From: a virus | Lineage: Duplodnaviria > Heunggongvirae > Uroviricota > Caudoviricetes | Reading direction: 5' to 3' (one strand) | IMG/VR virus record: IMGVR_UViG_2703718852_000002 | Location: 1 to 20,477 of that record | Length of the DNA stretch: 20,477 bases | The notes under the pieces: model-generated | The model's input: the letters and a program-made list of their open reading frames with translations, nothing else | Database searches by the model: none | Told to the model about the DNA's origin: nothing | Translations under genes and position numbers: made by a program | Shown here: piece by piece, positions 1,054 to 17,622 of the stretch | Layout: every line of letters starts with the position of its first letter | Position numbering within the stretch: the first letter of the stretch is position 1

Positions 1054-1241
1054 AAAAAATGCCCTCCAATAGAGAGCATTTTTACTGTATGTATAACCAG
1101 TGTCAATGTATGAAATCCTGCGACCATACATCTCACTGAAGCCATAATGAAGTAGGCTATTCTTTTTGCTATGTGATCATGTAACTTTTGCGGTTAACCT
1201 GTGGCTCATTTTTATTTTAGGCGCAGATATAAAAGCAAAAG

Positions 1242-1433
1242 TTATCGTGAGTTTTTAGTACAGATTTTTTTGGATTTACTAATAGTTCCATCATTGCAAA
1301 CGAATTTGCCATCAGAGGTACAGTGAGAAACACCTCCCTTTTTCCCTGAGCAGGGATAATTTCTAGCATAGGTAGCTAGTGGGTTTAATAACAAAGAACA
1401 TGACAAAACCACAAAAAATACCTTACCAAGCAT
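1242..1433 (-). CDS. Small exported cysteine-rich protein (63 aa) with predicted signal peptide; moron between cI and int
   Basis: ATG at 1431-1433 preceded by GGAGGA RBS. Hydrophobic N-terminus [23 protein letters not shown], then a 40-aa tail with 4 Cys. Region is AT-rich relative to int. Confidence 0.5.
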
Positions 1434-1448
1434 AATTTCCTCCCGGTA

Positions 1449-2018
1449 CTATTTAACATACTTGACTGTTAAACTTATAATTTTACCAATTATTTCAATG
1501 TCTTCTATCTTACATTCAAAGGCTCTGTTTCCACCCTCGACGAAGATTCTTCCACCGGGTAAACGAGTAATGTCACGGATCGTTATTTCGCCATCAATAC
1601 TTATTACCCATTTACCATCACGTATATCATCAAATTCCTTATCACAAATAAATTCAGAATTATTATCTGTGATTACAAAAAGATTCTTGAATGCCGACGG
1701 TAGAAATTCTCTATCGAAAATATAAAAACCGTCTTCACACAAGGCCCCATCAGATAATACATATTTAGCAACTTCCATAGTATTTGTATTACCTGAAGTT
1801 TGCTTTGAACCATGCCCGGTTGTGAGCCAATTAAGCGAGGTGCCTGTTTCAAGGGCGCACTGGATTACCCATTCTGCTGGGAATGAGTCACGCATGTAGC
1901 GTGTGGCGAGTGTACTTTTAGAGATTCCTAAATGATCGCACAACGCCTGTCGAGTCTTGAATCCATAAGCTTCTACCATGCGCTCTATGGCGCCTCGTCC
2001 GCCTTTCTCCAAATTCAT
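1449..2018 (-). CDS. cI: CI-type immunity repressor, phage 186 CI-like (about 189 aa)
   Basis: Size and position match 186 CI (192 aa), transcribed divergently from apl/cII and upstream of int. GGAG RBS lies 5 nt before the ATG at 2016-2018; the GTG at 2022-2024 is an alternative start. Confidence 0.8.
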   Translation of the reverse strand: MNLEKGGRGAIERMVEAYGFKTRQALCDHLGISKSTLATRYMRDSFPAEWVIQCALETGTSLNWLTTGHGSKQTSGNTNTMEVAKYVLSDGALCEDGFYIFDREFLPSAFKNLFVITDNNSEFICDKEFDDIRDGKWVISIDGEITIRDITRLPGGRIFVEGGNRAFECKIEDIEIIGKIISLTVKYVK

Positions 2019-2042
2019 GGTCACTCCAAGTGAACTTTTATC

Positions 2043-2071
2043 TTGACGATTTCACCGTGCGATCGTATGTT
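2043..2071 (+). promoter_or_regulatory. Putative lytic promoter (pR-like): -35 TTGACG, 17-bp spacer, -10 TATGTT
   Basis: TTGACG at 2043-2048 and TATGTT at 2066-2071 with a 17-nt spacer, about 70 nt upstream of the apl ATG, inside the cI-apl divergent switch region. Confidence 0.4.
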
Positions 2072-2143
2072 TATGGTGTTCACAAAATACAAACGATCCG
2101 TATTCGTCCTGATTAATCATCATTAAACGAGGAATGTTGCATC

Positions 2144-2365
2144 ATGAGACCTAACATTTCAATCACTCTTACCACGCCTCATGTGACTATTGAACGCTAT
2201 AGCGAGCTGACAGGGCTATCCATCGATACCATCAATGACATGTTGGCTGATGGACGCCTTATCCGTCACCGTCTGCGCAAAGATAAAAAACGCGAAAAAG
2301 TGATGATCAACATAGCAGCAATGACCGTTGATGCGCTTTCAGAATGCAATCTAAACCTTAATTAG
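2144..2365 (+). CDS. Apl/Cox-like excisionase and switch regulator (73 aa)
   Basis: First gene of the rightward operon opposite cI, the position of 186 apl / P2 cox. Small basic protein ([15 protein letters not shown]). GAGGA RBS upstream of ATG at 2144. Confidence 0.6.
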
Positions 2366-2397
2366 TTCGATTCTGAAATACATCAGAGGCATTGACC

Positions 2398-2907
2398 ATG
2401 TTTGATTACCAAGTTTCCAAACATCCACATTTTGATGAAGCCTGTCGTGCATTTGCACTGCGCCACAATCTGGTGCAACTGGCAGAACGTGCAGGCATGA
2501 ATGTGCAGATTCTGCGGAACAAGCTGAACCCAGCTCAGCCTCATTTATTAACCGCACCAGAAATCTGGCTGCTTACCGATCTGACTGAAGATTCAACGCT
2601 GGTAGATGGTTTTCTGGCACAGATTCATTGTCTGCCATGTGTACCGATTAATGAGGTGGCAAAAGAGAAACTGCCACATTACGTCATGAGTGCAACCGCA
2701 GAGATCGGGCGTGTTGCTGCAGGTGCGGTGTCTGGCGATGTAAAAACCTGTGCCGGTCGTCGTGATGCTATCAGCAGCATTAACTCTGTAACACGACTGA
2801 TGGCGCTGGCGGCTGTTTCATTGCAGGCCCGTTTACAGGCTAATCCTGCGATGGCGAGTGCAGTTGATACCGTGACTGGCCTCGGTGCTTCATTTGGTTT
2901 GCTGTGA
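2398..2907 (+). CDS. cII: CII-like lysogeny-establishment activator (169 aa from the ATG)
   Basis: Position directly after apl and length of 169 aa match phage 186 CII. ATG at 2398 is preceded by a GAGG RBS; the ORF-track start at 2392 is TTG. Confidence 0.7.
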
Positions 2908-2914
2908 GGTGCTT

Positions 2915-3115
2915 ATGCTGACGAAAGAACCATCATTTGCATCGCTGCTGGTTAAACAAAGCCCGGCAATGCATTACGGTCACGGCTGGATCATGGGGGA
3001 GGATGGTAAACGCTGGCATCCGTGCCGTTCACAAGATGAATTGCTGGCAGAACTATCTACGAAAAAACGGGGGAACAAATGGCTATTGAAGGCACTGCGG
3101 CGACTGTTCCATTAA
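2915..3115 (+). CDS. Small protein at the 186 fil position (possible Fil-like cell-division inhibitor)
   Basis: ATG at 2915 preceded by TGAGGTG RBS that overlaps the cII stop. Position matches 186 fil. Sequence-level assignment is from memory and uncertain. Confidence 0.4.
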   Translation: MLTKEPSFASLLVKQSPAMHYGHGWIMGEDGKRWHPCRSQDELLAELSTKKRGNKWLLKALRRLFH

Positions 3116-3420
3116 GCCCCGGTGAACGCCTGAATGGACTTAATCACATTGCGGAGTTAAGGGCGAAAGTTTTTGGCCTGAATATTGAGTCAGAGCTTGA
3201 GCGGTTTATTAAAGATATGCGTGATTCACGGGATATTAATAGCGAACAAAATAAACGGGCACTGGCTGCCATATTCTTTATGGCAAAAATTCCAGCTGAA
3301 CGTCATAGCATCAGCATTAATGAGCTGACCACTGACGAAAAGCGGGAGTTGATTAAAGCAATGAATCATTTTCGTGCAGTGGTGAGCTTATTTCCCAGAC
3401 GGCTAACCATGCCGAATTAA
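3079..3420 (+). CDS. Hypothetical early-operon protein (113 aa)
   Basis: ATG at 3079 with G-rich RBS. Lies in the early rightward operon between cII and gene A. Function not recognisable from sequence. Confidence 0.5.
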   Translation: MAIEGTAATVPLSPGERLNGLNHIAELRAKVFGLNIESELERFIKDMRDSRDINSEQNKRALAAIFFMAKIPAERHSISINELTTDEKRELIKAMNHFRAVVSLFPRRLTMPN

Positions 3421-3487
3421 CCAACTAATGAAATTAATGGCGTAAACCCGCCGGGCATCCCTTTATCTAAATTCAGGAGAATTGATT

Positions 3488-3721
3488 ATGCGTAATATTG
3501 AAACCCTCTCGACCAAAACCGGACCGGATGACGCAGGGCTTAATATTTTACTGACAGAGGCTCGTCTGGAAGAACGCCGGGCAAGGGCTGAAGCAATGGC
3601 AGCTCGCCTTGATAGCCTGGCGTGTCATATCACATCCCGCCAGCTAACCCACGTCGAAGCGGCAGAACTGCTTCGTGTGACTGCTGAAGCAATCCAGAAC
3701 GAAGCGCAGGAGATCCACTAA
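3488..3721 (+). CDS. Hypothetical early-operon protein (77 aa)
   Basis: ATG at 3488 preceded by AGGAGA RBS. Its TAA stop overlaps the start of the next gene (TAATG at 3719-3723). Confidence 0.5.
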   Translation: MRNIETLSTKTGPDDAGLNILLTEARLEERRARAEAMAARLDSLACHITSRQLTHVEAAELLRVTAEAIQNEAQEIH

Positions 3722-3948
3722 TGGCTGATGCAATGGATCTCGTACAGCAGCGCGTTGAAGAAGAACGCCAACGCCATATCCGTGCTGCCCGTGCCAAAAC
3801 GCCGGGCGTGTCCCGCGTGCTTTGCATTGAGTGTGAAGCGCCAATTCCGCCAGCACGCCGCCGTGCCATTCCGGGTGTGCAGCTTTGCATTACCTGTCAG
3901 GAAATCGCAGAGCTGAAAGGCAAACATTACAACGGAGGTGCTGTATGA
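3721..3948 (+). CDS. TraR/DksA-family C4 zinc-finger protein (75 aa)
   Basis: Two CxxC pairs (CIEC ... CITC) spaced as in TraR/DksA-type zinc fingers. Translationally coupled to the upstream gene and to dam (ATGA overlap at 3945-3948). Confidence 0.7.
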   Translation: MADAMDLVQQRVEEERQRHIRAARAKTPGVSRVLCIECEAPIPPARRRAIPGVQLCITCQEIAELKGKHYNGGAV

Positions 3949-4802
3949 GCACCATCCTGAAATGGGCGGGAAATAAAACTGCCATAATGTCCGAACTGAA
4001 AAAACATCTTCCTGCTGGCCCGCGACTGGTTGAACCTTTCGCGGGTTCCTGTGCTGTGATGATGGAGACGGATTATCCCAGCTATCTGGTTGCGGATATT
4101 AATCCTGATTTAATCAACCTCTATAAAAAGGTTGCCGCTGATTGTGAATCGTTTATATCTCGCGCCAGAGTTTTATTTGAGATCGCAAACAGGGAAGTGG
4201 CTTATTACAACATAAGGCAGGAGTTTAATTACTCAACTGAAATTACTGATTTCATGAAAGCGGTATATTTCCTGTATCTCAATCGTCACGGTTACCGTGG
4301 TTTATGTCGCTATAACAAGAGCGGGCATTTCAACATTCCCTACGGTAATTATAAAAATCCGTATTTCCCTGAAAAAGAAATTCGCGCATTTGCAGAAAAG
4401 GCCCAGCGAGCAACGTTTATCTGCGCCAGCTTTGATGAAACGCTGGCGATGTTGAAGGCGGGGGATGTGGTGTATTGCGATCCGCCGTATGACGGTACGT
4501 TTTCCGGCTATCACACTGACGGCTTCACTGAAGATGACCAGTATCACCTGGCATCTGTTCTTGAACATCGGTCATCAGAAGGACATCCGGTCATTGTTTC
4601 TAACAGTGACACATCCCTGATCCGTTCGCTGTATCGCAATTTTACTCACCACTACATCAAGGCAAAACGCAGCATCGGTGTGGCAGCTGGCGAGGGTAAA
4701 TCAGCAACAGAAATCATTGCTGTTTCCGGGCCGCGCTGCTGGGTGGGATTTGATTATTCGCGTGGCGTGGATAGTTCTGCCGTGTACGGAGTACGTGCAT
4801 GA
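3945..4802 (+). CDS. DNA adenine (N6) methyltransferase, Dam family, orphan
   Basis: N-terminus [12 protein letters not shown], AdoMet motif PFAGSCAV and catalytic DPPY (YCDPPYDG). GGAGG RBS upstream of ATG at 3945. No adjacent restriction endonuclease gene. Confidence 0.85.
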
Positions 4803-7213
4803 GTCATGCCGATATGAACAACTGCTGCGGCTTTAACGAAGCTGCCGCATCGTTCTCATGGAACAGCTCGAAAAAGGCCATTAACCCTTATCTGGACCCG
4901 GTGGAAGTTGCGCCGGTTTCTACGCTTTCAAACCTGATCACTCTGTACGCTGCCGATAACGAGCAGGAACAGCTGCGCCGTGAGGCGCTGAGTGATCAGG
5001 TCTGGGAGCGTTATTTCTTTAATGAATCCCGTGATCCTGTCCAGCGCGAAATGGAACAGGATAAGCTCATTAGTCGGGCAAAGCTGGCGCATGAGCAGCA
5101 GCGTTTTAATCCGGATATGGTCATTCTGGCGGACGTCAACGCCCAGCCTTCCCATATCAGCAAGCCGCTGATGCAACGTATTGAATACTTCAGCAGCCTG
5201 GGCAGGCCAAAGGCTTATTCCCGCTATTTACGTGAGACGATTAAGCCATGTCTGGAACGACTGGAGCATGTACGCGACAGTCAGCTATCTGCATCTTTTC
5301 GCTTTATGGCAAGCCATGAAGGGCTGGACGGCCTGCTGATCCTGCCTGAAATGAGTCAGTTTCAGGTGAAACGCCTGTCCACCCTGGTAGCTGCGCATAT
5401 GAGTATGTGCCTTGATGCCGCTTGTGGCGATTTGTATGCCACCGATGACGTTAAGCCAGAAGAAATCCGCAATACATGGGAAAGGGTGGCAGCGGAAACC
5501 CTGCGTCTGGATGTCATCCCGCCTGCGTTTGAGCAACTCCGTCGGAAAAGAAACCGCCGTAAACCCGTGCCCTATGAACTCATTCCGGGTTCGCTGGCGC
5601 GTATGTTGTGCGCCGACTGGTGGTATCGGAAATTATGGAAGATGCGTTGCGAATGGCGGGAAGAGCAGTTGCGTGCTGTCTGCCTTGTCAGCAAAAAAGC
5701 ATCTCCCTATGTCAGCTATGAAGCCGTGTTGCATAAACGTGAGCAGCGCCGTAAGTCGCTGGAGTTTTTCCGTTCTCATGAACTGGTGAACGAAGACGGC
5801 GACACGCTGGACATGGAGGATGTGGTAAACGCCAGCAGCAGCAACCCTGCGCATCGCCGCAATGAGATGATGGCCTGTGTTAAAGGTCTGGAGCTTATCG
5901 CGGAAATGCGCGGTGACTGCGCCGTTTTCTACACCATCACCTGTCCGTCACGTTTCCATTCCACGCTAAATAACGGCAGGCCCAACCCGACCTGGACAAA
6001 TGCGACGGTAAGACAAAGCAGCGATTATCTGGTCGGTATGTTTGCTGCATTTCGTAAGGCGATGCACAAAGCCGGGTTGCGCTGGTATGGCGTGCGGGTG
6101 GCTGAGCCGCATCACGACGGCACAGTTCACTGGCACCTGTTGTGTTTCATGCGCAAAAAAGACCGCCGCGCCATTACAGCATTGTTGCGTAAGTTTGCTA
6201 TCCGTGAAGACCGCGAGGAGCTGGGCAATAACACGGGGCCGCGCTTTAAGTCTGAGCTGATTAACCCGCGCAAAGGAACGCCGACAAGCTACATAGCGAA
6301 ATACATCAGTAAGAACATTGACGGGCGTGGTCTGGCTGGCGAGATCAGCAAGGAAACGGGTAAATCTCTGCGTGATAACGCTGAATACGTGAATGCCTGG
6401 GCGTCTTTGCATCGTGTTCAGCAATTCCGCTTCTTTGGCATTCCGGGGCGTCAGGCTTACCGTGAACTGCGATTGCTGGCTGGTCAGGCGGCAAGGCAAA
6501 AGGGGGACAAAAAAGCAGGTGCGCCGGTACTGGATAACCCGCGCCTTGATGCCATCCTGGCTGCTGCTGATGCTGGTTGTTTTGCCACCTACATCATGAA
6601 GCAGGGCGGCGTACTGGTTCCCCGTAAATATCACCTCATCAGAACCGCTTATGAAATCAACGAAGAGCCGACCGCCTATGGCGATCACGGCATTCGTATT
6701 TATGGCATCTGGTCACCCATTGCAGAGGGCAAGATCTGCACTCATGCAGTGAAGTGGAAAATGGTTCGTAAAGCCGTTGACGTTCAGGAGGCGGCAGCCG
6801 ACCAGGGCGCTTGCGCCCCTTGGACTCGTGGCAATAACTGTCCCCTTGCTGAAAATTTGAACCAACAGGAGAAAGATAAATCAGCTGATGGGGACCCCAG
6901 AACGGACATTACCAGCATGGATGACAAGGAGTTGCACGATTACCTGCACAGTATGAGCAAAAAAGAGCGCCGGGAACTGGCAGCAAGGTTACGCCTGGTG
7001 AAACCGAAACGGCGTAAAGACTACAAACAGCGAATTACAGACCATCAGCGACTGCAGCTCGTGTATGAGCTGAAGTCCAGAGGATTTGATGGCAGCGAGA
7101 AAGAGGTCGATTTACTCCTTCGCGGAGGCAGTATTCCGTCAGGAGCAGGCCTGCGTATCTTCTATCGGAACCAGCGTTTGCAGGAAGATGATCAGTGGCG
7201 GAACCTGTATTAA
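4799..7213 (+). CDS. Replication initiation protein, P2 gpA-like rolling-circle endonuclease (804 aa)
   Basis: HUH-type motif ([15 protein letters not shown]) and paired-tyrosine motif (YIAKYISK) typical of RCR initiators. Size and position match P2/186 gene A. ATG overlaps the dam stop (ATGA at 4799-4802). Confidence 0.9.
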
Positions 7214-7307
7214 TTACGCGGGTTAACAATTCGTGCTCTTAATAATACCAGGCATATCAGGCTGATGAACGTAAAAAAACGTTTTACATCAGTAAGATTA
7301 TTATATA

Positions 7308-7323
7308 CTGTAAATATAAACAG
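7308..7323. promoter_or_regulatory. LexA box (SOS operator) CTGTAAATATAAACAG upstream of the tum/DinI-like operon
   Basis: Exact CTGT-N8-ACAG palindrome with an AT-rich centre and TA/TG flanks (tactgtaaatataaacagtg). Overlaps candidate -10 TATACT at 7304-7309; candidate -35 TTTACA at 7283-7288. Confidence 0.7.
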
Positions 7324-7366
7324 TGGTTATACATACAGTATTGCGTGTGGTGTCATAGGAGGAAAG

Positions 7367-7555
7367 ATGCAGGACTATTTTTTGGAGTCTTTGAAGCTCC
7401 AGCGCATTGATTTTTTTCTTAAGCTTGTAGCGGCTAGTGAGTGTAGTGATGAAGAGAAGGGGCTGGCTCTGCAGTGGGTTTCTGAATTGACTGATGAACT
7501 CATGGCAAAAATCAGAACCCACGAATACAACCGCTCAATGGATGTCATCAGCTGA
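7367..7555 (+). CDS. Hypothetical 62-aa protein, first gene of the SOS-controlled operon (possible antirepressor N-terminal module)
   Basis: ATG at 7367 with a strong AGGAGG RBS, about 45 nt downstream of the LexA box. The ORF-track start at 7265 would include the operator and is rejected. Confidence 0.5.
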   Translation: MQDYFLESLKLQRIDFFLKLVAASECSDEEKGLALQWVSELTDELMAKIRTHEYNRSMDVIS

Positions 7556-7565
7556 GGTGACTTTT

Positions 7566-7799
7566 ATGCGCATTGAAATAATGATCGATAAAGAGCAGAA
7601 GATTAGCCAGTCTACCCTGGACGCCCTTGAATCCGAGCTTTACCGCAATCTGCGCCCCCTGTATCCCAAAACGGTAATTCGCATTCGCAAAGGTAGCTCT
7701 AACGGTGTGGAACTAACCGGACTGCAACTGGACGAAGAAAGAAAACAAGTGATGAAAATTATGCAGAAGGTGTGGGAAGACGACAGCTGGCTGCATTAA
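7566..7799 (+). CDS. DinI-family protein (77 aa), as in the C-terminal part of 186 Tum
   Basis: MRIEIMIDKEQ... aligns by eye with E. coli DinI (MRIEVTIAK...; conserved W-E/D-D..W near the C-terminus). AGGTGA RBS upstream. Sits under the LexA-box promoter. Confidence 0.8.
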   Translation: MRIEIMIDKEQKISQSTLDALESELYRNLRPLYPKTVIRIRKGSSNGVELTGLQLDEERKQVMKIMQKVWEDDSWLH

Positions 7800-7933
7800 G
7801 AAACGTTGCTGGCGTCTGAACTTGCTTCTGGCGTCAGCAAGGTTGAACAACGAGCCCTTGCGAGGCGTTAGCTCTGTAGTGCATGTCTATGCCGCATGAG
7901 ATCGCATGATCGTTTGAGGATCGTTTTTGCTAA

Positions 7934-7958
7934 GGCCCGCCAGAACTGGCGGGCTTTT
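7934..7958 (+). terminator. Rho-independent terminator closing the early/SOS region
   Basis: GC-rich stem ggcccgccag / ctggcgggc with a short loop, followed by TTTT at 7955-7958. Confidence 0.6.
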
Positions 7959-8196
7959 GCGTAGATCATGCAGGTGCATGAAAACCACTACATAAAGCGG
8001 GCAGGCGTGGCGGGGATACGAGCGCGCGCTGATAGGGTAATCGTCAAAACAGGCATCAGCTAGGTTGAGTTGTAGCGGTGCTTAAGTTTGCTCGTTGTTT
8101 GATAGAGCTTAATGTATGTAATTGCCTACAGCTGTGGTTATCTATTAACATGTAAGGATAAGGTCACTTGCTCGCTGCCATTAGAAGAGGAACTGG

Positions 8197-8667
8197 ATGT
8201 CTATCGAGGAAAAATTTTTTAGTGATATCGATTTAAAAGATCCGTTTTTTAACAGCCTAAGAGCTGATTATGAAGGATTTGATGTTTGGTTTCTCTCAAA
8301 AGGTAAAAATAAGGCGTTTGTATCACGTAATGAATTAGGTGAAATCGATGGTTTTCTCTATTTGAAAATAGAAGATGAAGAGTTGAGTGATATGACTCCA
8401 ACGTTTCCAAAGATGAAGCGAGTAAAGCTTGGCACATTTAAAATCGATGCTCATGGAACCAAACTTGGAGAGCGTTTTATTAGAATTATGTTTCAATTTG
8501 CTATGAGAAACAAACTAAAAGAAGTATATGTTACTATATTTGATAAGCATTCAGGATTAATTCGCTTATTAACTAAATATGGTTTTGTTTTAAAGGCGAG
8601 GAAAAATCTTTCTACGATTAATGGGCAAGAAGGTGTATACTTTAAAAACTTGGTATGGAAGGAGTAA
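8197..8667 (+). CDS. Cargo protein 1 (156 aa), unknown function; weak GNAT-like resemblance in the C-terminal half
   Basis: ATG at 8197 with AGAAGAGG RBS. AT-rich codon usage. Segment KLGERFIRIMFQFAMRNKLKEVYVTIFDKHSGLIRLLTKYGFVL is reminiscent of an acetyltransferase core but does not fit the canonical motif cleanly. Confidence 0.6.
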   Translation: MSIEEKFFSDIDLKDPFFNSLRADYEGFDVWFLSKGKNKAFVSRNELGEIDGFLYLKIEDEELSDMTPTFPKMKRVKLGTFKIDAHGTKLGERFIRIMFQFAMRNKLKEVYVTIFDKHSGLIRLLTKYGFVLKARKNLSTINGQEGVYFKNLVWKE

Positions 8668-8670
8668 AAA

Positions 8671-9252
8671 ATGAGCTATGCTAATTATCCCTTAGTCAAA
8701 TTGCAGGGGAGAAATTATTTATTAAGTATTTATCCTGCATGGCATACACGTCTTTTCCCTGAGTCAAAACTCCACAATGAGAGTGCTGGTATCATCGCTG
8801 ATATATCACATACCAACAGTATTGAAAAAGTATACTTAACAAAAATGCATGGGGTAGCCAGCCTAAAGCCTGGAGATAATTTGCTTATTTATCGTACTTC
8901 AGATGGACAAGGTCCAGCTCGGTTTAGATCTGTTGCAACTTCAGTGTGTGTGGTTCAGGAAATTAAAGATATTCACGATTTCTTAACTTATGAGGAATTT
9001 AAGAATTACTGTGAACCTTATAGCGTTTTTGATGAAGATGAGTTACAGCTTCTATATATGAAAAAAAATTATCCGATAATTATACGGTTTACTTATAATT
9101 TCCCTTTGGAAAAAAGAGTTATTCGTGATGAAATCATGAATATTACAGGTTATACCAATAGTGATTATTGGGGTTTTTTACCACTAACTGATTCAGCATT
9201 TAAGCAGATTGTCTTACAGGGAGGTGTTGATGAAAGTTTTATTATCGATTAA
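8671..9252 (+). CDS. Cargo protein 2 (193 aa), unknown function
   Basis: ATG at 8671, 3 nt after the stop of cargo 1, with GGAAGGAG RBS. Overlaps the start of cargo 3. No recognisable motif. Confidence 0.6.
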   Translation: MSYANYPLVKLQGRNYLLSIYPAWHTRLFPESKLHNESAGIIADISHTNSIEKVYLTKMHGVASLKPGDNLLIYRTSDGQGPARFRSVATSVCVVQEIKDIHDFLTYEEFKNYCEPYSVFDEDELQLLYMKKNYPIIIRFTYNFPLEKRVIRDEIMNITGYTNSDYWGFLPLTDSAFKQIVLQGGVDESFIID

Positions 9253-9601
9253 GCCAGAGTATGCAGAGAGTATACTTTCTGGTAAAAAAAAATATGAGTT
9301 TCGGAAAAATATTTTTAGAAATAAAAATGTTGATACGATAGTTATTTACGCAACGATGCCGGTTGGCAAAGTAATAGGTGAATTTAAAGTAGGAGATATT
9401 CTTGCTCTATCCCCTTCAGAATTGTGGGATAAAACGAAAGCTCATGCAGGAATTACACATTCTTTTTTTAAAGATTATTTCCACCAAAGAGAAAAGGCTT
9501 TTGCTATTTCCATCAAAAGCCCTAAAAGATATAAATTCCCTGTCGACTTAAATGAGTTGATTCCCGGCGGCGTCGCCCCACAGTCTTATCGTTATTTATA
9601 A
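9230..9601 (+). CDS. Cargo protein 3: ASCH-domain (PUA-like) protein (123 aa)
   Basis: ATG at 9230 preceded by GGAGGTG RBS. N-terminal MKVLLSIKPEYAESILSGKKKYEFRK carries the ASCH signature GxKxxExR seen in E. coli YqfB (GRKTITIR). Confidence 0.65.
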   Translation: MKVLLSIKPEYAESILSGKKKYEFRKNIFRNKNVDTIVIYATMPVGKVIGEFKVGDILALSPSELWDKTKAHAGITHSFFKDYFHQREKAFAISIKSPKRYKFPVDLNELIPGGVAPQSYRYL

Positions 9602-10141
9602 TGTTGTCTGGGCATGTTTCTTAACCATGCCCAGTTTTTCTAGGGCAATAGATAAATCGTTTGTTGTTGGGGATTCTAAGATAATTAATGGTACATTGAT
9701 TTTATTTGTAACATATTTTGCGTTTTCTCTTTCAGCTTCCATCAGCTTATTTAAATCATAAGTAATATCACTCCCATCTCGTTTCATTATTCGTTCTCTA
9801 ATTGTATCGGGAGACTCCTCAACTAAAATTACTCCATCTAGCCCCATTTCCTCAAATACTTCTTGCTTGAGAACTTCAATATCTCCATTTTTATTTATTA
9901 AGGTAAAATGACCATCCAATAAAATATTGGATACCTTTAACTTTAATGCATTAAGTGCCGTAAGTAATATTGATTGGTTTTTATCAGGTGTGGCCGTTAA
10001 CTTACTGTTATCAAATTTAATATTAGAATTATTTTTTATAAGTTCGCTTGCGCTTACATGAGTTACCCCGAAATCATCTTTTGCAAATGAACACAAGTAA
10101 CCTTTGCCTACACCATGAACACCTGCTATGAAAATTAACAT
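9596..10141 (-). CDS. Cargo protein 4: small P-loop NTPase / nucleotide-kinase-like protein (181 aa)
   Basis: Walker A motif at the N-terminus (IFIAGVHGVGKGYL) and Walker B-like hhhhDG (ILLDGHF). ATG at 10139-10141 with GGAGG RBS. Convergent with cargo 3; the 3' ends overlap by 6 nt. Confidence 0.7.
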   Translation of the reverse strand: MLIFIAGVHGVGKGYLCSFAKDDFGVTHVSASELIKNNSNIKFDNSKLTATPDKNQSILLTALNALKLKVSNILLDGHFTLINKNGDIEVLKQEVFEEMGLDGVILVEESPDTIRERIMKRDGSDITYDLNKLMEAERENAKYVTNKINVPLIILESPTTNDLSIALEKLGMVKKHAQTTL

Positions 10142-10206
10142 AGTATTACCTCCGTTTATTTATTTATGTTAGAATGTTATAGCCTTAGCATAGTAGAGGA
10201 TAGAGC

Positions 10207-10584
10207 ATGAAGTTTCAAGCTATATCGATTTTGACTCCAGCGGTAGAAAATATTATAAATGGTTCTAAATCTATCGAAATACGGTCGTGGTATCCTGAAA
10301 CGATACCATTAAAAAACGTCATTCTTGTTCAGAATGATAAATATCTTAAAAATCAAAGCGATATAGATCATGGGGTGGCTATGGCTATTGTCGATTTTGT
10401 TTCAGTTAGAAATTGGTCATATGAGGATTACTTAAAACAAAACCAAGAAACAACTCTTAATAAGCCTTGGTCTCCAGGTTATTATGTGTGGGAAATTAAA
10501 AATGTTAGAATTTTAAAAAAATCTATTCCTTGTGTGGCGAGGAAAGGTATTTATACAATAGATTTAAATATGGATTATATATAA
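10207..10584 (+). CDS. Cargo protein 5: second ASCH-domain (PUA-like) protein (125 aa)
   Basis: ATG at 10207 with GAGGA RBS. Motif NGSKSIEIRSW fits the ASCH GxKxxExR signature. Divergent from cargo 4. Confidence 0.65.
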   Translation: MKFQAISILTPAVENIINGSKSIEIRSWYPETIPLKNVILVQNDKYLKNQSDIDHGVAMAIVDFVSVRNWSYEDYLKQNQETTLNKPWSPGYYVWEIKNVRILKKSIPCVARKGIYTIDLNMDYI

Positions 10585-10595
10585 GGTATTGTGAG

Positions 10596-11387
10596 ATGTG
10601 TGGTGCCATTCTTCGAAATATTAAGCGTTATGCCATTATTTATTCACTGTTGTTTTTGGCTTTTATTTTAATGCTGATAGTGTTTGTTAGCTATGTTTGT
10701 AAATTTGGAGTGTATTCATGGAGTGATTCCGTAGAGAAATGGGGACAGTTTGGCGATTATATTGGTGGTGTACTGAATCCTGCTCTGGCCTTTATCTCTA
10801 TCATGCTTGTTTGTTTCACACTATATTCTACATCTAGGCAGTCATCTATTCAGTCATTCGAGTCTGTGTTATTTGAGTTACTAAGATTTCATAAAGATAA
10901 CTTATCAGAAATTAAAACAACGTATTCAGATGGAAAAGTGTATGTAGGACGGGAGGCTCTTTCATTATACATTACCGAAGTGAAGTTTAACCTACTTAAT
11001 ATTGTGGATGATTCACTTCCTTTGGATGAAAGGTTAGAGCTTTCAGTTAATATGGTTTATCTGGAAGGTGACAATTTTGCGAATGTGGGACATTATTTCA
11101 GGAATATTTACCATATTTTTAAACATATCAATGACTCTAACTATTTGACTGAGAAAGAAAAAACCAAGTATGCGAAATTAGTTAGAGCACAAATATCTTC
11201 TATAGAATCTGGCGCGATGCTATTAAATGGTTTTTCATCGGTAGGAAAGCCTGCCAAGAAATTTATTGAAAAATATTCTCTCCTTCAGGGGTTTAGTTTA
11301 AGTAAGGAATTCAAGCAGCAATTACATGATTTAGGTGCCTTAAAATTATACGATGACGTTGCTTATGAGGATAAAAAAGGGCATTAA
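10596..11387 (+). CDS. Cargo protein 6: membrane protein with two N-terminal TM helices and a cytoplasmic C-terminal domain (263 aa); candidate effector
   Basis: ATG at 10596, 12 nt after the cargo 5 stop. Hydrophobic segments IIYSLLFLAFILMLIVFVSYV and LNPALAFISIMLVCFTLYS. The ORF-track start at 10530 is TTG inside cargo 5 and is rejected. Confidence 0.6.
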   Translation: MCGAILRNIKRYAIIYSLLFLAFILMLIVFVSYVCKFGVYSWSDSVEKWGQFGDYIGGVLNPALAFISIMLVCFTLYSTSRQSSIQSFESVLFELLRFHKDNLSEIKTTYSDGKVYVGREALSLYITEVKFNLLNIVDDSLPLDERLELSVNMVYLEGDNFANVGHYFRNIYHIFKHINDSNYLTEKEKTKYAKLVRAQISSIESGAMLLNGFSSVGKPAKKFIEKYSLLQGFSLSKEFKQQLHDLGALKLYDDVAYEDKKGH

Positions 11388-12230
11388 ATGCCCTTATCTT
11401 GGTCAAGGATGTAGTCATTAAATGACACAATATTTTGATTTATCCAGGTGTTTAGCTCAACTAGTCTTTTCTGCAAAGGAACCAACTCATTTCTGACAAA
11501 AACCTTCGCGGCTTTTTCCACATCCCCAAACCCTCCAACATTATTAGGCATAATCCCCATCATTTGCGGCGGCACGCGGTGCGCAGCCATCATGTCATCA
11601 CGGCTCACGTTCTTGATATTCAGAAACTCATCCTTCGCCGCAACTTCTGACAATGGGATAATCTGAAGCCCGTCCTTTTTGCCGTTAGGCGAGTACATAA
11701 ACAGGTTGCGGAAGTTGCCCGGACCTTTGGCGCTTTTCATCGCATTGCGGAGGTTGTTCACATCTTCCTGGTTCTGCGCGGCATCGGTCATGTACATGAT
11801 GAAGCCTGCATGACTGCCGTTAATGTAATACTTCCGGCGGAACAGCGTGGCGGACTCGTTGAGCAGGGCTGACGGAATGGCAGAAAGATAACCTGGCAGG
11901 CCGTAGATCTCCTGGTTGATGTCCGGTTCCATCAGATGAAAAATGCTGCCTTTCGTGAACTGATACGGCTGGGTTGTCATACCGTATTGCACAAACCAGT
12001 AGGTATCCAGGTCTAACCCGCGTCGGGTATATTTTGCCAGAGCAGGCTCAAGGGCGATAACTTCACCGAAGCGGTTCGTGCGTTTCTCCAGGTAGGCGTT
12101 ACCAAATACCAGATAGTCCTGCACAAAACGTGAAAAAGCCTGCTGGCTGAGCAGCGGGTGAGGGATGTAGGTACTGGTCAGAATGTTGCATTTTACTGCA
12201 ATCGGTGACCGGAAGCAGAGCCGGTAATGG
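11384..12230 (-). pseudogene. Q: Portal protein gene remnant (P2 gpQ-like), 5' part deleted
   Basis: The C-terminal ~270 aa of the 317-aa ORF read as a P2-family portal (...AAHRVPPQMMGIMPNNVGGFG...FNDYILDQDKGI). The N-terminal ~30 aa of the ORF are antisense to the J remnant and not portal-like. Upstream boundary is approximate. Confidence 0.6.
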
Positions 12231-12439
12231 CAGCGGCAAAAGCCAGTCTGCAGAAGTACATTGCCAGCCAGACGAGGCTTGGTCGGGATATTCGCCGTAG
12301 CGCCATCTTTGCTGCTCTGCATGTTGAGGGTGTTCAACGTGTGGAACTGGCTTCTCCGCTGGCGGATGTGGTCCTGAACAAAACACAGGCGGCATCATGT
12401 ACGCAGTGGAGCGTAACCAACGGAGGAACGGATGAATAG
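12227..12439 (+). pseudogene. J: Baseplate protein J gene remnant (3' end only)
   Basis: A 70-aa ORF ending 5 nt into gene I, where the gpJ C-terminus would sit. No full-length J upstream; abuts the portal remnant. Confidence 0.45.
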
Positions 12440-13037
12440 TCTGCTGCCACCGGGTTCAACTTCACTGGAGCGCCGACTGGCGCAAACCTGTAGCGGGATT
12501 TCTGATTTGCAGGTGCCGCTGCGTGACTTGTGGAATCCGGCTACCTGTCCGGTCAGCTTCCTGCCTTATCTCGCCTGGGCGTTCTCTGTGGATCGCTGGG
12601 ACGAGGGCTGGACAGAAAGCGTCAAACGCCAGGTAGTGAAGGATGCTTTTTATATTCATCAGCATAAAGGAACCACCAGTGCCGTGCGGCGGGTGGTGGA
12701 ACCGTTCGGATTCCTGATCCGCATTATTGAGTGGTGGCAGACCGGAGAAACACCGGGCACGTTTCGCCTGGATATCGGCGTGCAGGACCAGGGCATCACT
12801 GAAGATACCTATCTGGAACTTGAGCGACTGATAAGCGATGCCAAACCATGTAGCCGCCACATGATCGGCATGTCCATCAATCTGCAGACCAGCGGCCCGC
12901 ATTGGGTGGGAGCCGCCAGCTATCTTGGCGAAGAAATCACGATCTATCCGTATATCAACGAAACGATTATTTCCGGTGGCACCGCGCATGAAGGCGGGGC
13001 GGTCCATGTTATTGACACAATGAGAGTGAATCCATGA
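12432..13037 (+). CDS. I: Baseplate/tail protein gpI (201 aa)
   Basis: LRDLWNPATCPVSFLPYLAWAFSVDRWDEGW...GTFRLDIGV matches P2 gpI as recalled. GGAGGA RBS. Stop overlaps the H start. Confidence 0.8.
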   Translation: MNSLLPPGSTSLERRLAQTCSGISDLQVPLRDLWNPATCPVSFLPYLAWAFSVDRWDEGWTESVKRQVVKDAFYIHQHKGTTSAVRRVVEPFGFLIRIIEWWQTGETPGTFRLDIGVQDQGITEDTYLELERLISDAKPCSRHMIGMSINLQTSGPHWVGAASYLGEEITIYPYINETIISGGTAHEGGAVHVIDTMRVNP

Positions 13038-14480
13038 GCACAAAATTTTATACCCTGCTGACGGATATTGGCGCGGCGAAACTTGCCAGCGCCGCCGCGC
13101 TCGGTGTGCCGCTAAAAATTACCCATATGGCGGTGGGCGATGGCGGTGGAGTATTGCCAACGCCGGACGCAAAGCAGACGGCACTGGTAAATGAGAAACG
13201 CCGGGCTGCGCTGAATATGCTTTATATCGACCCGCAGAACAGCAGCCAGATTATTGCCGAACAGGTGATCCCTGAAAACGAGGGCGGTTGGTGGATACGT
13301 GAAGTGGGCTTGTTTGATGAGTCCGGGGCATTGATTGCCGTGGGCAACTGCCCGGAAAGCTATAAGCCGCAACTGGCTGAAGGTAGCGGGCGCACTCAGA
13401 CCGTGCGCATGGTGCTGATTACCAGCAGCACGGACAATATCACCCTGAAAATCGACCCTGCTGTAGTGCTGGCAACCCGCAAGTATGTGGATGACAAGGC
13501 ACTGGAGCTGAAGGTGTACGCGGATGATCAGATGGCAAAACATCTTGCCGCACCGGACCCGCATTCACAGTACGCGCCAAAAGCCAGCCCGACATTTACC
13601 GGAACCCCCAAAGCGCCAACGCCAGCGGCGGGGAATAATACCACGCAGGTTGCGACCACTGCGTTTGTACAGGCGGCACTGACGGCCCTTATTAATGGTG
13701 CGCCAGCCACGCTGGACACGCTGAAAGAAATAGCCGCAGCCATTAACAATGATCCGAATTTCAGTACCACCATTAACAATGCGCTGGCACTAAAAGCACC
13801 GTTGTCGAGTCCGGCACTCACCGGAACGCCAACAGCCCCCACGGCGGCGCAGTCGGTCAACAATACACAGATTGCCACTACGGCTTTTGTGAAATCGGCG
13901 ATTGCAGGAATGGTGGGTTCTGCACCTGCTGCACTGGATACACTGAACGAACTGGCGGCGGCACTGGGGAATGATCCGAACTTTGCCACGACAATGCTTA
14001 ATGCGCTGGCAGGTAAACAACCGCTGGACAATACGCTTACCAATTTGAGTGGAAAGGATGTGGCTGGTCTTCTCGCATACCTTCAATTGGGAGAAGCGGC
14101 AAAACGGGATGTCGGAACCGGTAATAATCAACTCCCGGACATGTCCGCATTTGGTATGTCGCGAAACGGACAAACTGCCTGGGATATTCTCCCAAATGGT
14201 ATGATTCGACAGGCTGGCACTGTGACACTGACACCAGTTGGTAACTTCAACGAAATTGTTCTTGGTGGAGTGACGTACTACACCCATTACTACAGGGTTA
14301 ATTTCCCCAGACAATTCCCAAATGCACAAATAGCAACGCTGGCAACACTAGCGAGCTCAGAGTTTTCGAAACAGACAACAATGGCCGGAAAATCACTGGC
14401 AACGCATCGCGATACTGATTCTGGCACTGACGTATCAAGAACGCGATTCACTGTGGCGTACGGCAGCAGTAACTCGAACC
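13034..14480 (+). pseudogene. H: Tail fiber gene H, N-terminal ~480 codons, 3' part deleted and fused to the T remnant
   Basis: MSTKFYTLLTDIGAAKLASAAALG...MAVGDGGG...ESYKPQLAEGSGR...LDTLNELAAALGNDPNFATTMLNALAGKQP is P2 gpH-like. After about 14470 the frame reads low-complexity Cys/Arg-rich text, and no G/tail-fiber-assembly gene follows. Confidence 0.7.
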
Positions 14481-14489
14481 AGCAGCGCG

Positions 14490-15734
14490 TTGTCCTGGCT
14501 GGCTGGCGCACCACTGGCACTGCTGCGACGCGGGCTTGCTTCATCGGGCAACGCCGCAGGTTTACTTACTGCGCCGTTGTCGTCTTTGCGCCGCACGGCA
14601 TCACTGACGGGAAATGTCCTGAAAACTGTAGCAGGTGCGCCGGTTGCACTTTTGCGGTCTGGATTATCCGGTTTACGTGCTGTTGCTGTGATGTTTATGA
14701 ATCCTCTGGCGGTACTGCGCGGTGGACTGGCCGCCGCAGGCACGGTGCTGCGAGTACTGGCATCTGGTCCACTGGCGATGCTGCGCGTTGCCCTGTATGC
14801 CATATCTGGTCTGTTAGGTGCTCTGCTCAGTCCGATAGGTCTTGTGGTTACTGCACTGGCGGGCGTGGCGCTGGTTGTCTGGAAATACTGGCAACCCATC
14901 ACCGCATTTCTCGGTGGCGTGGTGGAAGGATTCAAAGCGGCGGCAGGTCCCATCAGTGCAGCGTTCGAACCGCTTAAGCCCGTGTTCCAGTGGATTGGCG
15001 ACAAAGTGCAGGCGCTGTGGGGCTGGTTTACTGATCTGCTGACGCCCGTTAAGTCGACCTCTGCCGAACTGCAGAGCGCAGCGGCAATGGGGCGGCGATT
15101 CGGGGAGGCACTGGCGGAAGGGCTGAATATGGTCATGCATCCGCTGGACTCCCTGAAATCCGGCGTTTCCTGGTTGCTGGAGAAGCTCGGCATTGTCAGT
15201 AAAGAGGCCGCAAAGGCAAAACTGCCGGAAAGCGTGACGCGTCAGCAACCTGCGACGGTGAATGCAGACGGTAAAGTGATGATGCCATCGGGTGGTTTTC
15301 CATCATGGGGATATGGCTTTGCGGGGATGTATGACAGCGGCGGGTATATCCCGCGCGGGCAGTTTGGCATCGTCGGTGAAAACGGGCCGGAAATTGTTAA
15401 CGGCCCGGCAAATGTGACCAGCCGGAGAAATACAGCTGCACTGGCTGCCGTTGTTGCCGGAATGATGGGCGTTGCTGCCGCGCCAGCAGAGCTTCCACCG
15501 TTGCACCCTTTGGCACTTCCCGCGAAAGGTGGAGAAGCAATTGTGAGTCGCGCAGCCACTGTGCCGCTCGTTCAACGGATTGAGGCACCGACGCAGATCA
15601 TCATTCAGACGCAGCCAGGACAAAGTGCGCAGGATATTGCGCGGGAGGTGGCACGCCAGCTTGATGAACGTGAACGCAGGCTGAAGGCAAAAGCCAGGAG
15701 TAACTACAGCGATCAGGGGGGATACGACGCATGA
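14490..15734 (+). pseudogene. T: Tail tape-measure gene T, C-terminal ~414 codons only
   Basis: Ala/Gly/Leu-rich tape-measure-like sequence ending directly before gpU (ATGA overlap at 15731-15734). The ORF-track start at 14490 is TTG; this frame is open back to a stop at 14349-14351. The N-terminal half of T and the genes for sheath, tube, E and G are absent. Confidence 0.65.
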
Positions 15735-16216
15735 TGATGGTGCTGGGATTGTACGTGTTTATGCTGCGCACCGTTCCGTATCAGGAACTGCAGTATCAAC
15801 GCAGCTGGCGACATGCGGCAAACAGTCGGGTAAACCGACGTCCGTCCACGCAGTTTCTGGGACCGGAAAACGACATGCTGACGCTTTCCGGTGTTCTTAT
15901 GCCGGAAATAACAGGCGGCAGGCTGTCGTTGCTGGCACTGGAGCAGATGGCAGAACAGGGGAAAGCATGGCCCCTGATTGAAGGCAGCGGCACGATTTAC
16001 GGCATGTATGTGATTGAGGGACTGAATCAGACTAAAACGGAGTTTTTCCGCGACGGTATGCCGCGCCGGATTGAGTTCACCCTGTCGCTCAAACGAGTGG
16101 ATGAATCCCTGTCCGATATGTTCGGTGATCTCAGTGCGCAACTGAATAATCTGCAGGACACGGCAACGTCTGCCTTAAGCGATATCAGTAAAACGGTGGG
16201 AGGGCTGCTGTCGTGA
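15731..16216 (+). CDS. U: Tail protein gpU (161 aa)
   Basis: Position between T and D, and size close to P2 gpU (159 aa). ATG overlaps the T stop. Confidence 0.75.
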   Translation: MMMVLGLYVFMLRTVPYQELQYQRSWRHAANSRVNRRPSTQFLGPENDMLTLSGVLMPEITGGRLSLLALEQMAEQGKAWPLIEGSGTIYGMYVIEGLNQTKTEFFRDGMPRRIEFTLSLKRVDESLSDMFGDLSAQLNNLQDTATSALSDISKTVGGLLS

Positions 16217-17313
16217 ATTTCAGCTCTGAACTGCTTAACAAAGGCAACAAAACTCCCGCATTCAGCATCAGTATTGAGGGCAGGGATATCACCACTGTGC
16301 TGGATAACCGCCTGATGAGTTTGACGCTGACGGATAACCGGGGCTTTGAAGCGGACCAGCTTGATCTGGAGCTGGATGACGCTGACGGAAAAATCGTGCT
16401 GCCGCGCCGTGGTGCGGTTATTACGCTGGCGCTGGGCTGGAAGGGGCAGCCGCTTTTCCCGAAAGGGGCATTCACAGTGGACGAGATTGAACACACTGGC
16501 GCACCGGACCGCCTGACTATCCGGGCGCGAAGTGCTGATTTTCGGGAAACGCTGAATACCCGCCGTGAAAAATCGTGGCATAAGACCACCGTCGGGGAAG
16601 TGGTGAAGGAAATAGCCGCGCGGCACAAGCTGAAGATGGCACTGGGTAAAGACCTGTCGGATAAGCCCGTGGAGCATATAGACCAGACTAATGAGAGTGA
16701 CGGCAGTTTTCTGATGCGGCTGGCGCGACAGTACGGTGCCATCGCGTCGGTGAAAAATGGCAATCTGTTATTCATCCGGCAGGGGCAGGGCAAAAGCGCC
16801 ACTGGTAAACCTCTGCCAGTGATCACTATCACACGCAAGGACGGCGACAGTCACCGATTTACCCTGGCAGATCGCGGAGCCTACACGGGCGTAATTGCCA
16901 GCTGGTTGCATACCCGCGAACCTGCGAAGAAAGAAAGCACCACGGTGAAGCGTAAGCGCAGAACTAAGAAGCAGAAGAAAGAGCCAGAAGCGAAGCAGGG
17001 CGATTACCTGGTGGGTACGGATGAAAACGTGCTGGTACTTAATCGCACTTATGCCAACCGGAGCAACGCCGAACGAGCGGCGAAAATGCAGTGGGAACGC
17101 CTGCAACGCGGCGTTGCGTCATTTTCGCTACAACTGGCAGAAGGGCGGGCAGATCTCTACACGGAAATGCCTGTGAAGGTCAGTGGTTTTAAACAGCCGA
17201 TAGATGATGCGGAATGGACCATTACGACTCTGACACATACTGTCAGCCCGGATAATGGTTTTACGACCAGTCTGGAGCTTGAAGTGAGGATTGATGATTT
17301 CGAAATGGAATGA
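16213..17313 (+). CDS. D: Tail protein gpD (366 aa)
   Basis: Resembles P2 gpD (...LTLTDNRGFEADQLDLELDD...TIRARSADFRETL...RLARQYGAIASVKNG...). GTG start overlaps the U stop (GTGA). Confidence 0.8.
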   Translation: MNFSSELLNKGNKTPAFSISIEGRDITTVLDNRLMSLTLTDNRGFEADQLDLELDDADGKIVLPRRGAVITLALGWKGQPLFPKGAFTVDEIEHTGAPDRLTIRARSADFRETLNTRREKSWHKTTVGEVVKEIAARHKLKMALGKDLSDKPVEHIDQTNESDGSFLMRLARQYGAIASVKNGNLLFIRQGQGKSATGKPLPVITITRKDGDSHRFTLADRGAYTGVIASWLHTREPAKKESTTVKRKRRTKKQKKEPEAKQGDYLVGTDENVLVLNRTYANRSNAERAAKMQWERLQRGVASFSLQLAEGRADLYTEMPVKVSGFKQPIDDAEWTITTLTHTVSPDNGFTTSLELEVRIDDFEME

Positions 17314-17403
17314 TTCTTCGCAATGGAGAACTTTTAAGTTTGCAAAATGGAATAATGCGGTATCATTATTGTGAATTTAGCAAAAATGGGGAGAGCTCGA
17401 AAA

Positions 17404-17622
17404 ATGATGATTTGCCCACTGTGTGGAAGTGCCGCCCATACTCGCAGCAGTTTTCAGGTATCTTCATTGACCAAAGAGCGTTACAACCAGTGCCAGAACA
17501 TTAACTGCAGCCATACTTTTGTTACCCATGAAACTTTTGTTCGTTCGATTGCAACGCCAAAAGAGTCAAATCCGGTTCAGCCGCATCCAATGAAATCAGG
17601 ACAGGTGGCGCTCTCTCTTTGA
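17404..17622 (+). CDS. ogr: Late-gene transcriptional activator Ogr (186 B-like), C4 zinc finger
   Basis: MMICPLCGSAAHTRSS...ERYNQCQNINCSHTF matches the P2 Ogr zinc-finger pattern (CPLC...CQNxNC). ATG at 17404 chosen over the ORF-track start at 17371. Confidence 0.85.
   Translation: MMICPLCGSAAHTRSSFQVSSLTKERYNQCQNINCSHTFVTHETFVRSIATPKESNPVQPHPMKSGQVALSL

Follow-up and report, generated by a model that had tools for sequence, protein, structure and literature searches.

A portal–J deletion scar in a defective P2-like prophage of Escherichia coli and the nucleotide-exact reuse of its J-side end-point

Defective P2-like prophages are known from several Escherichia coli strains, among them a remnant in the B-lineage strain DL21 and the elements carried at the ybjL site by strains S3, E94, EC50, KBN10P04869 and ETEC1701. 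These prophages lose morphogenesis genes by internal deletion and keep int, the repressor, the early genes, cargo and ogr, each of them with break points of its own. The element described here belongs to the same family and shares the integration site of the ybjL group. It lies in a stretch of 20,477 nucleotides (nt), positions 1 to 20,477 of IMG/VR virus record IMGVR_UViG_2703718852_000002, referred to below as the window. As judged from its sequence, the window is a defective P2-like (Peduoviridae) prophage of E. coli beside ybjL, together with the right-hand host flank. Like it, strain S3 carries a portal gene joined to the baseplate gene J; the S3 joint is independent and falls at other nucleotides. 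The present study concerns the portal–J joint of the window, the deletion that it records, and the recurrence of its J-side end-point in other junctions.

Among 5,426 complete E. coli genomes searched, strain MLI104K1 has an intact prophage (L003) that covers 98% of the window at 98.5% identity. Its ybjL-ybjM-grxA site and its six cargo genes, placed between cos and portal, are those of the window. As the closest intact relative, it was used as the reference parent for the break points, and its coordinates are given below as L003. Window positions 1-12208 are colinear with L003 1-12207 (99.4% identity), and positions 12189/12207-14145, comprising the 3′ end of J, gene I and the 5′ part of H, are colinear with L003 22574/22591-24529. 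Both flanks are thus colinear with one intact relative and meet at a single break point devoid of filler DNA, as in an internal deletion. At the joint (junction 1 in Table 1), the parental sequences are ...ATCGGTGA/GCTG in portal and ...ATCCGGGA/CCGG in J, the slash marking the joint; over a longer stretch they read ...GCAATCGGTGA/GCTGTG and ...CTATCCGGGA/CCGGAAGC, and the window reads ...GCAATCGGTGACCGGAAGC. The missing stretch amounts to 10,385 base-pairs (bp) relative to L003 and to about 9.8 kilobases (kb) relative to phage Cartapus, which has less cargo. It takes in the 5′ end of portal, terminase, scaffold, capsid, head completion, lysis and tail completion genes, V, W and most of J. None of the lost genes was found elsewhere within the window.

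The open reading frame (ORF) at 11384-12230 is portal-derived. The remnant that it contains is 99% identical to the annotated portal coding sequence of L003 (11383-12426, minus strand), of which it matches positions 11383-12207, and it matches the Cartapus portal (920-1684); PF04860 is recorded on the gene of an identical locus (L005). Colinearity with L003 identifies window 11384-12208 as the portal coding sequence minus its first 73 codons (out of 347 in L003); the late promoter is gone as well. On the other side of the joint, an in-frame TGA made by the joining (12206-12208) stands ahead of the J remnant, so that the longest J ORF is the 70-residue frame opened by the first internal ATG. 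The start of gene I overlaps the J stop codon. A sequence-only reading of this DNA had proposed that a minus-strand portal remnant directly abuts roughly 70 codons of J followed by an intact I, and that terminase, scaffold, capsid, completion, lysis and baseplate genes, about 10 kb in all, have been lost. Base-by-base comparison with L003 upholds these points, and the joint falls inside the interval 12200-12245 where the break point had been expected.

We conclude that junction 1 is very probably a dead scar of prophage decay, left by illegitimate, homology-independent joining of a portal break to a J break over the two base-pairs GA. In itself it is functionless; the portal remnant lacks a start and a promoter, and the J remnant opens with an in-frame stop.

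Table 1. Features of the window and deletion end-points shared among P2-like prophages (positions refer to the window unless marked L003; a slash marks a joint)
Feature	Position	Strand	Content and basis
int	1-1053
Early/replication region match	2395-7872		blastn, Cartapus
Joined genome ends (cos) match	7879-8033		blastn, Cartapus
cos region (joined phage genome ends), kept	7972-8033		matches both ends of the Cartapus record, annotated P2-like cos
Six-gene cargo island between cos and portal, kept intact	8197-11387		putAbiC-family protein, two ASCH proteins, AAA_17/18 ATPase (opposite strand), two without family; same genes in MLI104K1 and E94; Pfam on identical L005
Portal gene (gpQ) 3′ remnant	11384-12208	-	825 nt, C-terminal 274 codons and stop
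Portal match	11444-12208		blastn, Cartapus
J 3′ end, I and H 5′ part match	12189-14143		blastn, Cartapus
Junction 1, GA common to both parents	12207-12208		L003 12206-12207 and 22591-22592; base-by-base comparison
Baseplate gene J 3′ remnant	12207-12439	+	233 nt, codons 227-302 (of 302) and stop; colinear with L003 22591-22823
70-residue ORF, J C-terminal fragment from first internal ATG	12227-12439	+	ORF list; PF26079 Baseplate_J_C
Gene I (baseplate/tail protein I), intact	12432-13037	+	201 residues; PF09684; length as in Cartapus and MLI104K1
Tail-fibre gene H without its last ~19 codons	13034-14460	+	left parent, H gene of strain Z226-5 (L024 655-665)
Intact Gin-type invertase crossover site within H	14070-14095		TTCTCGCATACC TT CAATTGGGAGAA
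Junction 2, TA common to H and tape-measure gene T	14459-14460		H, GGCGTA/TACGAC; T, CCGT/TACGGC
T 3′ end, U, D and ogr match	14459-17534		blastn, Cartapus
T 3′ remnant (last third), then intact U, D, ogr	14461-15734	+	colinear with L003 31208 onwards; Pfam on L005
attR core AACAAAAAACCCAT	17700		ybjL-ybjM-grxA to its right
End-point J 22591, partner portal	L003 22591; window 12207		window
End-point J 22591, partner scaffold gene O, codon ~119	L003 22591		L007, L008, L012, L019; ...GTTCGCTGA/CCGG
End-point J 22591, partner O, codon ~59	L003 22591		L010; ...CTGCCGGA/CCGG
End-point J 22591, partner gene between dam and A	L003 22591		L009; ...TTGCGGTGA/CCGG; native continuation read in strain UMNK88
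End-point J 22161	L003 22161; deleted in window		joined to gene A in AHB21, terminase in C21
End-point D 33950	L003 33950; window 17201		joined to H in S3, terminase in KBN10P04869, head-completion gene L in two IMG/VR contigs
End-point M 16767	L003 16767; deleted in window		joined to T in LH10-b-1, lysC in H3

The chance that the joint is an artefact, with two contigs chimerically joined at a short repeat, is practically negligible. Such an origin could be suspected from the shortness of the shared GA and from the distribution of the joint: junction 1 (portal 12207 to J 22591 in L003 coordinates) was present in none of the 5,426 complete RefSeq E. coli genomes, and pattern scans of GTDB species representatives and metagenomes yielded no match. 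However, the identical sequence is found in independent NCBI assemblies, on contigs of at least 271 kb. It was reached only through an exact-protein index of the 70-residue product, which is recorded, exact, on 206 contigs, and through one IMG/VR contig of a sister type; about 10 of the 24 longest contigs that were read have the window architecture, and at least 10 public assemblies besides the window share the joint exactly. One assembly, GCA_002467335.1, matches the window over 18,251 nt with zero mismatches. Another (GCA_005396145.1; L046) carries the same portal–J joint unchanged and, in addition, a further deletion joining dam to portal at 1056-1065. The identity of the joint in many assemblies, and its persistence in L046, indicate that the scar is genuine, inherited and part of an ongoing erosion. 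L046 is a descendant of the window type without gpA, cos, the cargo island and part of the portal remnant.

The prophage of E. coli E94/E92 (L014; NZ_CP119740, 21028) has a single, different deletion, which runs from the start of V to T, removes 11,033 bp and shows AT microhomology. Where aligned with the window it is 99% identical, with the same cargo; it is the same phage. The separate deletion in L014 indicates that the same prophage type was disarmed independently by another route.

How the two ends came together was considered from the parental sequences. The sequence-only reading had suggested looking for microhomology at the junction. Some is present, the GA being exact, yet it does not exceed 2 bp, the wider match (ATCGGTGAGC versus ATCCGGGACC) being imperfect at 7 of 10 positions identical. 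An exact direct repeat of 5 bp or more, our criterion for microhomology-mediated deletion, is not present at the parental sites of junction 1. One conceivable route is copy-choice (replication slippage): the nascent strand would have left one of two imperfect direct repeats, ATCGGTGA in portal and ATCCGGGA in J, and annealed anew at the other, skipping 10.4 kb. The two sites agree at 6 of 8 bases ending in GA, and junctions of other relatives are clearly driven by microhomology (GTGAATG in EC50, possibly TGACG in LH10-b-1 and H3). We nonetheless regard copy-choice as a doubtful explanation for junction 1. Exact pairing would be limited to 2 bp at the 3′ end, on which a 10-kb jump is improbable; no unusual hairpin brings the sites together (z-scores -0.4 to -1.8); and the use of the same J nucleotide with unrelated partners, described below, is left unexplained.

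Double-strand breakage followed by end joining, rather than the action of a recombinase, is the route towards which we lean. A break inside the portal gene would have been joined to a break inside J through the GA, with the loss of the intervening 10,385 bp. Alternative end joining in E. coli was reportedly found by Chayot et al. in 2010 to depend on RecBCD and ligase A. As here, it gives large deletions with 0-7 nt of microhomology, and the prophage is without a Chi site that would stop RecBCD: no exact copy of Chi (GCTGGTGG) occurs on either strand of the whole 34-kb intact prophage (L003 1-34400), so that a RecBCD complex coming in from a break would meet no Chi there to stop it. Alternative end joining predicts scattered end-points, however, whereas reuse here is nucleotide-exact.

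The J-side end-point of junction 1 is used at the same nucleotide in other junction types. Alignment upstream of the 70-residue ORF in other contexts showed J 22591 (L003) joined to different left partners: the portal gene in the window, two positions in the scaffold gene O, and a gene between dam and A (Table 1). The exact-protein look-up detects break points only within a limited stretch upstream of the ATG. This stretch is at least about 90 nt long, because the gene caller also picks that ATG in frameshifted intact J genes (L011); a coincidence to within 1-2 nt is therefore not expected.

The independence of the J 22591 events is partial. The J alleles of the window and L007 types differ, the first difference lying 38 nt after the joint: the J remnant of the window is a Cartapus-like allele and that of L007 and L010 an MLI104K1-like allele. 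L010 could derive from an L007-type ancestor. The right flank of L009 is 100% identical to that of the window, with CGGTGA in common; L009 may thus have arisen from a window-type ancestor by a secondary deletion over 6 nt of microhomology. The same reasoning would allow the window type itself to be secondary. These two points weigh against a single event at junction 1. The sequence-only reading had the 10 kb lost "in one event"; this stands as the simplest account of the joint but is beyond proof, given that relatives erode stepwise and that the J end-point is common to other junction types. Breaks recur at that nucleotide either way.

A two-step origin would take the following form. An older, smaller deletion ended at the J site (for instance scaffold joined to J, as in L008), and a portal deletion then reached the old joint through TGA/CG.TGA similarity. 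Prophages do erode stepwise (L046; L007 versus L008; E94 with its single deletion), portal CGGTGA and the L007-type joint CGCTGA are alike at 5 of 6 bases, and L009 perhaps derived from the window type in just this manner. On the other hand, the allelic difference between the window and L007/L010 from 38 nt after the joint means that direct descent needs an extra recombination very near the joint. We consider this origin unlikely.

For a less biased sample, complete genomes were queried with 20 short probes whose spacing exceeded 1.25 kb, so that two of them are reported together only where a deletion has brought them close. A ranked genome sample and two pattern scans of viral contigs were also used, and loci were mapped on L003. 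This sample provided about 30 junctions and revealed three further shared end-points, J 22161, D 33950 and M 16767 (Table 1). At D 33950, the flanks of S3 and KBN10P04869 are 97.9% identical; as no in-frame ATG follows this end-point, no exact-protein look-up could be made from it. Among the 19 right-hand ends found without the J ORF there were three coincident pairs, against approximately 0.02 expected by our own estimate for random placement across the 21-kb late region. Several junctions are of an ordinary kind: the EC50 joint has the 7-nt microhomology GTGAATG, and those of LH10-b-1 and H3 possibly have TGACG.

Could the reuse reflect selection rather than breakage? Under this alternative, breaks are constrained so as to keep the J C-terminal fragment, I and the 5′ part of H expressed as a domesticated module. 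Downstream of junction 1, at 18 nt, comes an in-frame ATG with a purine-rich stretch; another in-frame ATG follows J 22161 after 6 nt, and I is intact across all lineages found. The retention of I is a matter of ascertainment, however, all loci having been found through J or I sequences. Moreover, no upstream promoter is kept, the portal gene reads the opposite way, H is fused out of context to T, and selection cannot yield a nucleotide-exact coincidence. This makes a selected arrangement very unlikely.

When an origin nickase or a recombinase errs, the classic outcome is one fixed end and variable partners. Michel and Ehrlich are said to have reported, in 1986, deletions in which the nick at a rolling-circle origin (pC194/M13) forms the fixed end. 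As in those deletions, the end-points described here combine one constant end with variable partners that share a few bases next to the nick; in contrast to them, the constant ends fall within J, D and M rather than at the gpA origin, and are unlike the P2 origin nick. Cutting at quasi-sites by a phage enzyme (a Gin-type invertase, the integrase at secondary attachment (att) sites or the nickase gpA at a pseudo-origin) was thus weighed in turn. Over 26 bp the J site forms an imperfect palindrome, and its outer bases (TTCTC...) are reminiscent of invertase sites. Yet native invertase sites have an AA/TT core and the inner half AAACC/GGTTT, neither of which is found at the J site; the P2 origin nick (GCGCCTCG/GAGTCC) and the att core (AACAAAAAACCCAT) are unlike the junction sequences; and gene A holds no copy of the J-site sequence. 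We judge an origin of this kind to be extremely unlikely.

The particular candidates were rejected one by one. A quasi-site for a serine invertase (Gin/Cin/Hin/Pin) should have the half-site TTCTCNNAAACC and the native TT/AA core, but the J site has a GA core and is without AAACC/GGTTT; the portal site, counted by hand, matches at 1 of 10 and 4 of 10 defined positions in its two halves. For a pseudo-origin of gpA, an HUH nickase, the P2 origin (GCGCCTCG/GAGTCCTGTCAA) is unlike every shared end-point. An eduction-like deletion by the integrase at secondary sites does not fit, the att core being unrelated to the junction sequences. Stopping of RecBCD at Chi fails for lack of Chi in the prophage, and Chi-like octamers are not placed so as to protect the retained arms. 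Stalling at hairpins was discarded, as no significant structure is seen at the four shared end-points. Restriction sites (CCGG, GGWCC, W^CCGGW) are missing from the left partners. Finally, a CRISPR protospacer-adjacent motif (AAG beside the J site) would leave the putative target retained, so that survival is unexplained.

Illegitimate recombination mediated by gyrase and independent of short homology has been described (Ikeda and co-workers), as has the swapping of gyrase interfaces (PMC11164529). Like the window joint, it links unrelated sites with 0-2 bp of homology. The E. coli gyrase cleavage consensus, as given in the supplement to PMC6379681, is GGCGGTAT-NNNN-ATACCGCC, in which CGGT and ACCG stand two bases outside the 4-nt stagger. 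Many junction arms read outward from the joint start with (T)AC(C/G)G (in a set taken from L002, L007-L010, L014-L018, L021-L023 and the window), and the arms of the discovery set appear to resemble the cleavage half-site, which stands where the cut would require it. Of the 14 arms from lineages using the J site, 7 contain ACCG (P<5e-5, corrected for motif choice); none of the 23 other arms does. Scored by their best agreement with ATACCG no more than 2 nt from the joint, the 39 unique discovery arms reach a mean of 3.56 of 6 positions, versus 2.83 at random positions (P<5e-5); in a ranking of all 4096 hexamers ATACCG comes 6th, the best being TTACCG. The junction 1 arms of the window, CGGTGA/ and /GGACCG, each match the consensus at 4 of 6 positions at offset 0/-1, and the deleted arms match poorly. 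The arms of junction 2, described below (GCGTAT/ and /TTACGG), fit the half-site picture too.

These resemblances suggest, tentatively, that the breaks arose at preferred cleavage sites, possibly those of a type IIA topoisomerase (gyrase or topoisomerase IV). Two such sites would be cut, the tyrosine-linked 4-nt overhangs trimmed away, and the ends joined over 1-2 nt, a terminal T, TA or GA. Exonuclease VII is reported to remove gyrase-type overhangs (as cited in PMC11164529); removal of the adduct is also treated in PMC11784200. Extended to all four shared end-points, the proposal is that a small set of nucleotide-exact break sites (J 22591, J 22161, D 33950, M 16767) might be cut repeatedly by a sequence-preferring enzyme, most plausibly a type IIA topoisomerase, and then joined to varying partners. 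We hold this to be possible rather than probable.

Several observations speak against the topoisomerase step. Eight new junctions (15 arms) held out from the discovery set, picked after the idea was formed, gave no enrichment for ATACCG (mean 2.93 versus 2.83, P=0.37); the half-site signal is strong in the discovery set, weaker in arms unused for the idea and absent in the small hold-out. The discovery-set P values are optimistic, since the motif was tested after TAC/ACCG had been seen in the data. The 60-nt periodic wrap arms of gyrase are not matched: scores against the 133-bp consensus fall between the 14th and 97th percentiles, and those of the J site between the 20th and 33rd. Likeness to the consensus is confined, at each site, to the retained arm and does not extend to the deleted one. 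The spacing between CGGT and ACCG is 0-1 nt, where simple subunit exchange predicts 8 nt, and in the classic gyrase model swapped halves are religated with the 4-nt stagger kept, whereas the window joint is without it. Some junctions, finally, are plainly ordinary microhomology events (EC50, with 7 nt). The reuse of end-points is much better supported than the topoisomerase reading, and is itself drawn from a few dozen junctions.

A quasi-palindrome, TCGGTACAAATACCGC, is found at L003 14249-14264, in the P-O intergenic region between divergent late promoters, a region deleted in the window. It looks like a near-complete gyrase-type site (CGGTA-N4-TACCG). The GF31 deletion has its left end 1 nt away.

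The window bears a second deletion, between H and T. Junction 2 lost approximately 6.3 kb, comprising the tail-fibre assembly genes, the invertase, sheath, tube, E/E′ and most of T, and the H-T fusion produces a chimeric ORF of 647 residues (13034-14977). Joining at a native invertase site was considered for this junction and rejected: the native site is intact and lies apart from junction 2 (Table 1). The crossover site within H survives although the invertase gene and the partner site are deleted. Together, the two deletions have left a 17.8-kb defective prophage that can make neither heads nor tails and cannot lyse the cell.

The rest of the element conforms to its family. Homology and gene order over the early genes, cos, portal, J-I-H and T-U-D-ogr place it among the P2-like phages; Cartapus (Peduoviridae, Elveevirus) aligns by blastn at 88-97% DNA identity across the homologous segments, in P2 order. 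The integrated form is confirmed by int at one end, ogr and the att core at the other and host genes beyond; attL lies just beyond the window edge. The intact prophage measures about 34.5 kb; the remnant, of about 17.8 kb, keeps int, the repressor, the early/replication operon (gpA being intact), cos, the cargo island, U, D and ogr. The nick sequence of the P2 origin, GCGCCTCGGAGTCCTGTCAA, has been mapped experimentally. No match to it with up to 4 mismatches was found anywhere in the window, the gpA gene (4799-7213) included, from which it follows that the origin of this phage clade must differ in sequence. Between cos and portal, other relatives carry different cargo (DarT/Macro with AIPR, HIRAN, retron St85). 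This position looks like an anti-phage hotspot of P2-like phages.

Taken alone, the scar is an ordinary deletion, another case of the well-known decay of prophages. It marks the prophage as defective: by its gene content, the element should still be able to confer immunity and carry its cargo, and should form no particles. The sequence-only reading had likewise held that particles cannot be formed; this follows from the deletion at junction 1 and is reinforced by the one between H and T. For annotation, the element should not be counted as an inducible phage. The part that deserves the attention of specialists is the J-side break, one of several nucleotide-exact reused break points in P2-like phages. 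If the reuse of break nucleotides holds, the choice between random deletion with selection and site-preferred breakage becomes directly testable. If the break sites are indeed cut by an enzyme, the disarmament of prophages would be partly predictable, enzyme-driven and possibly stimulated by quinolones.

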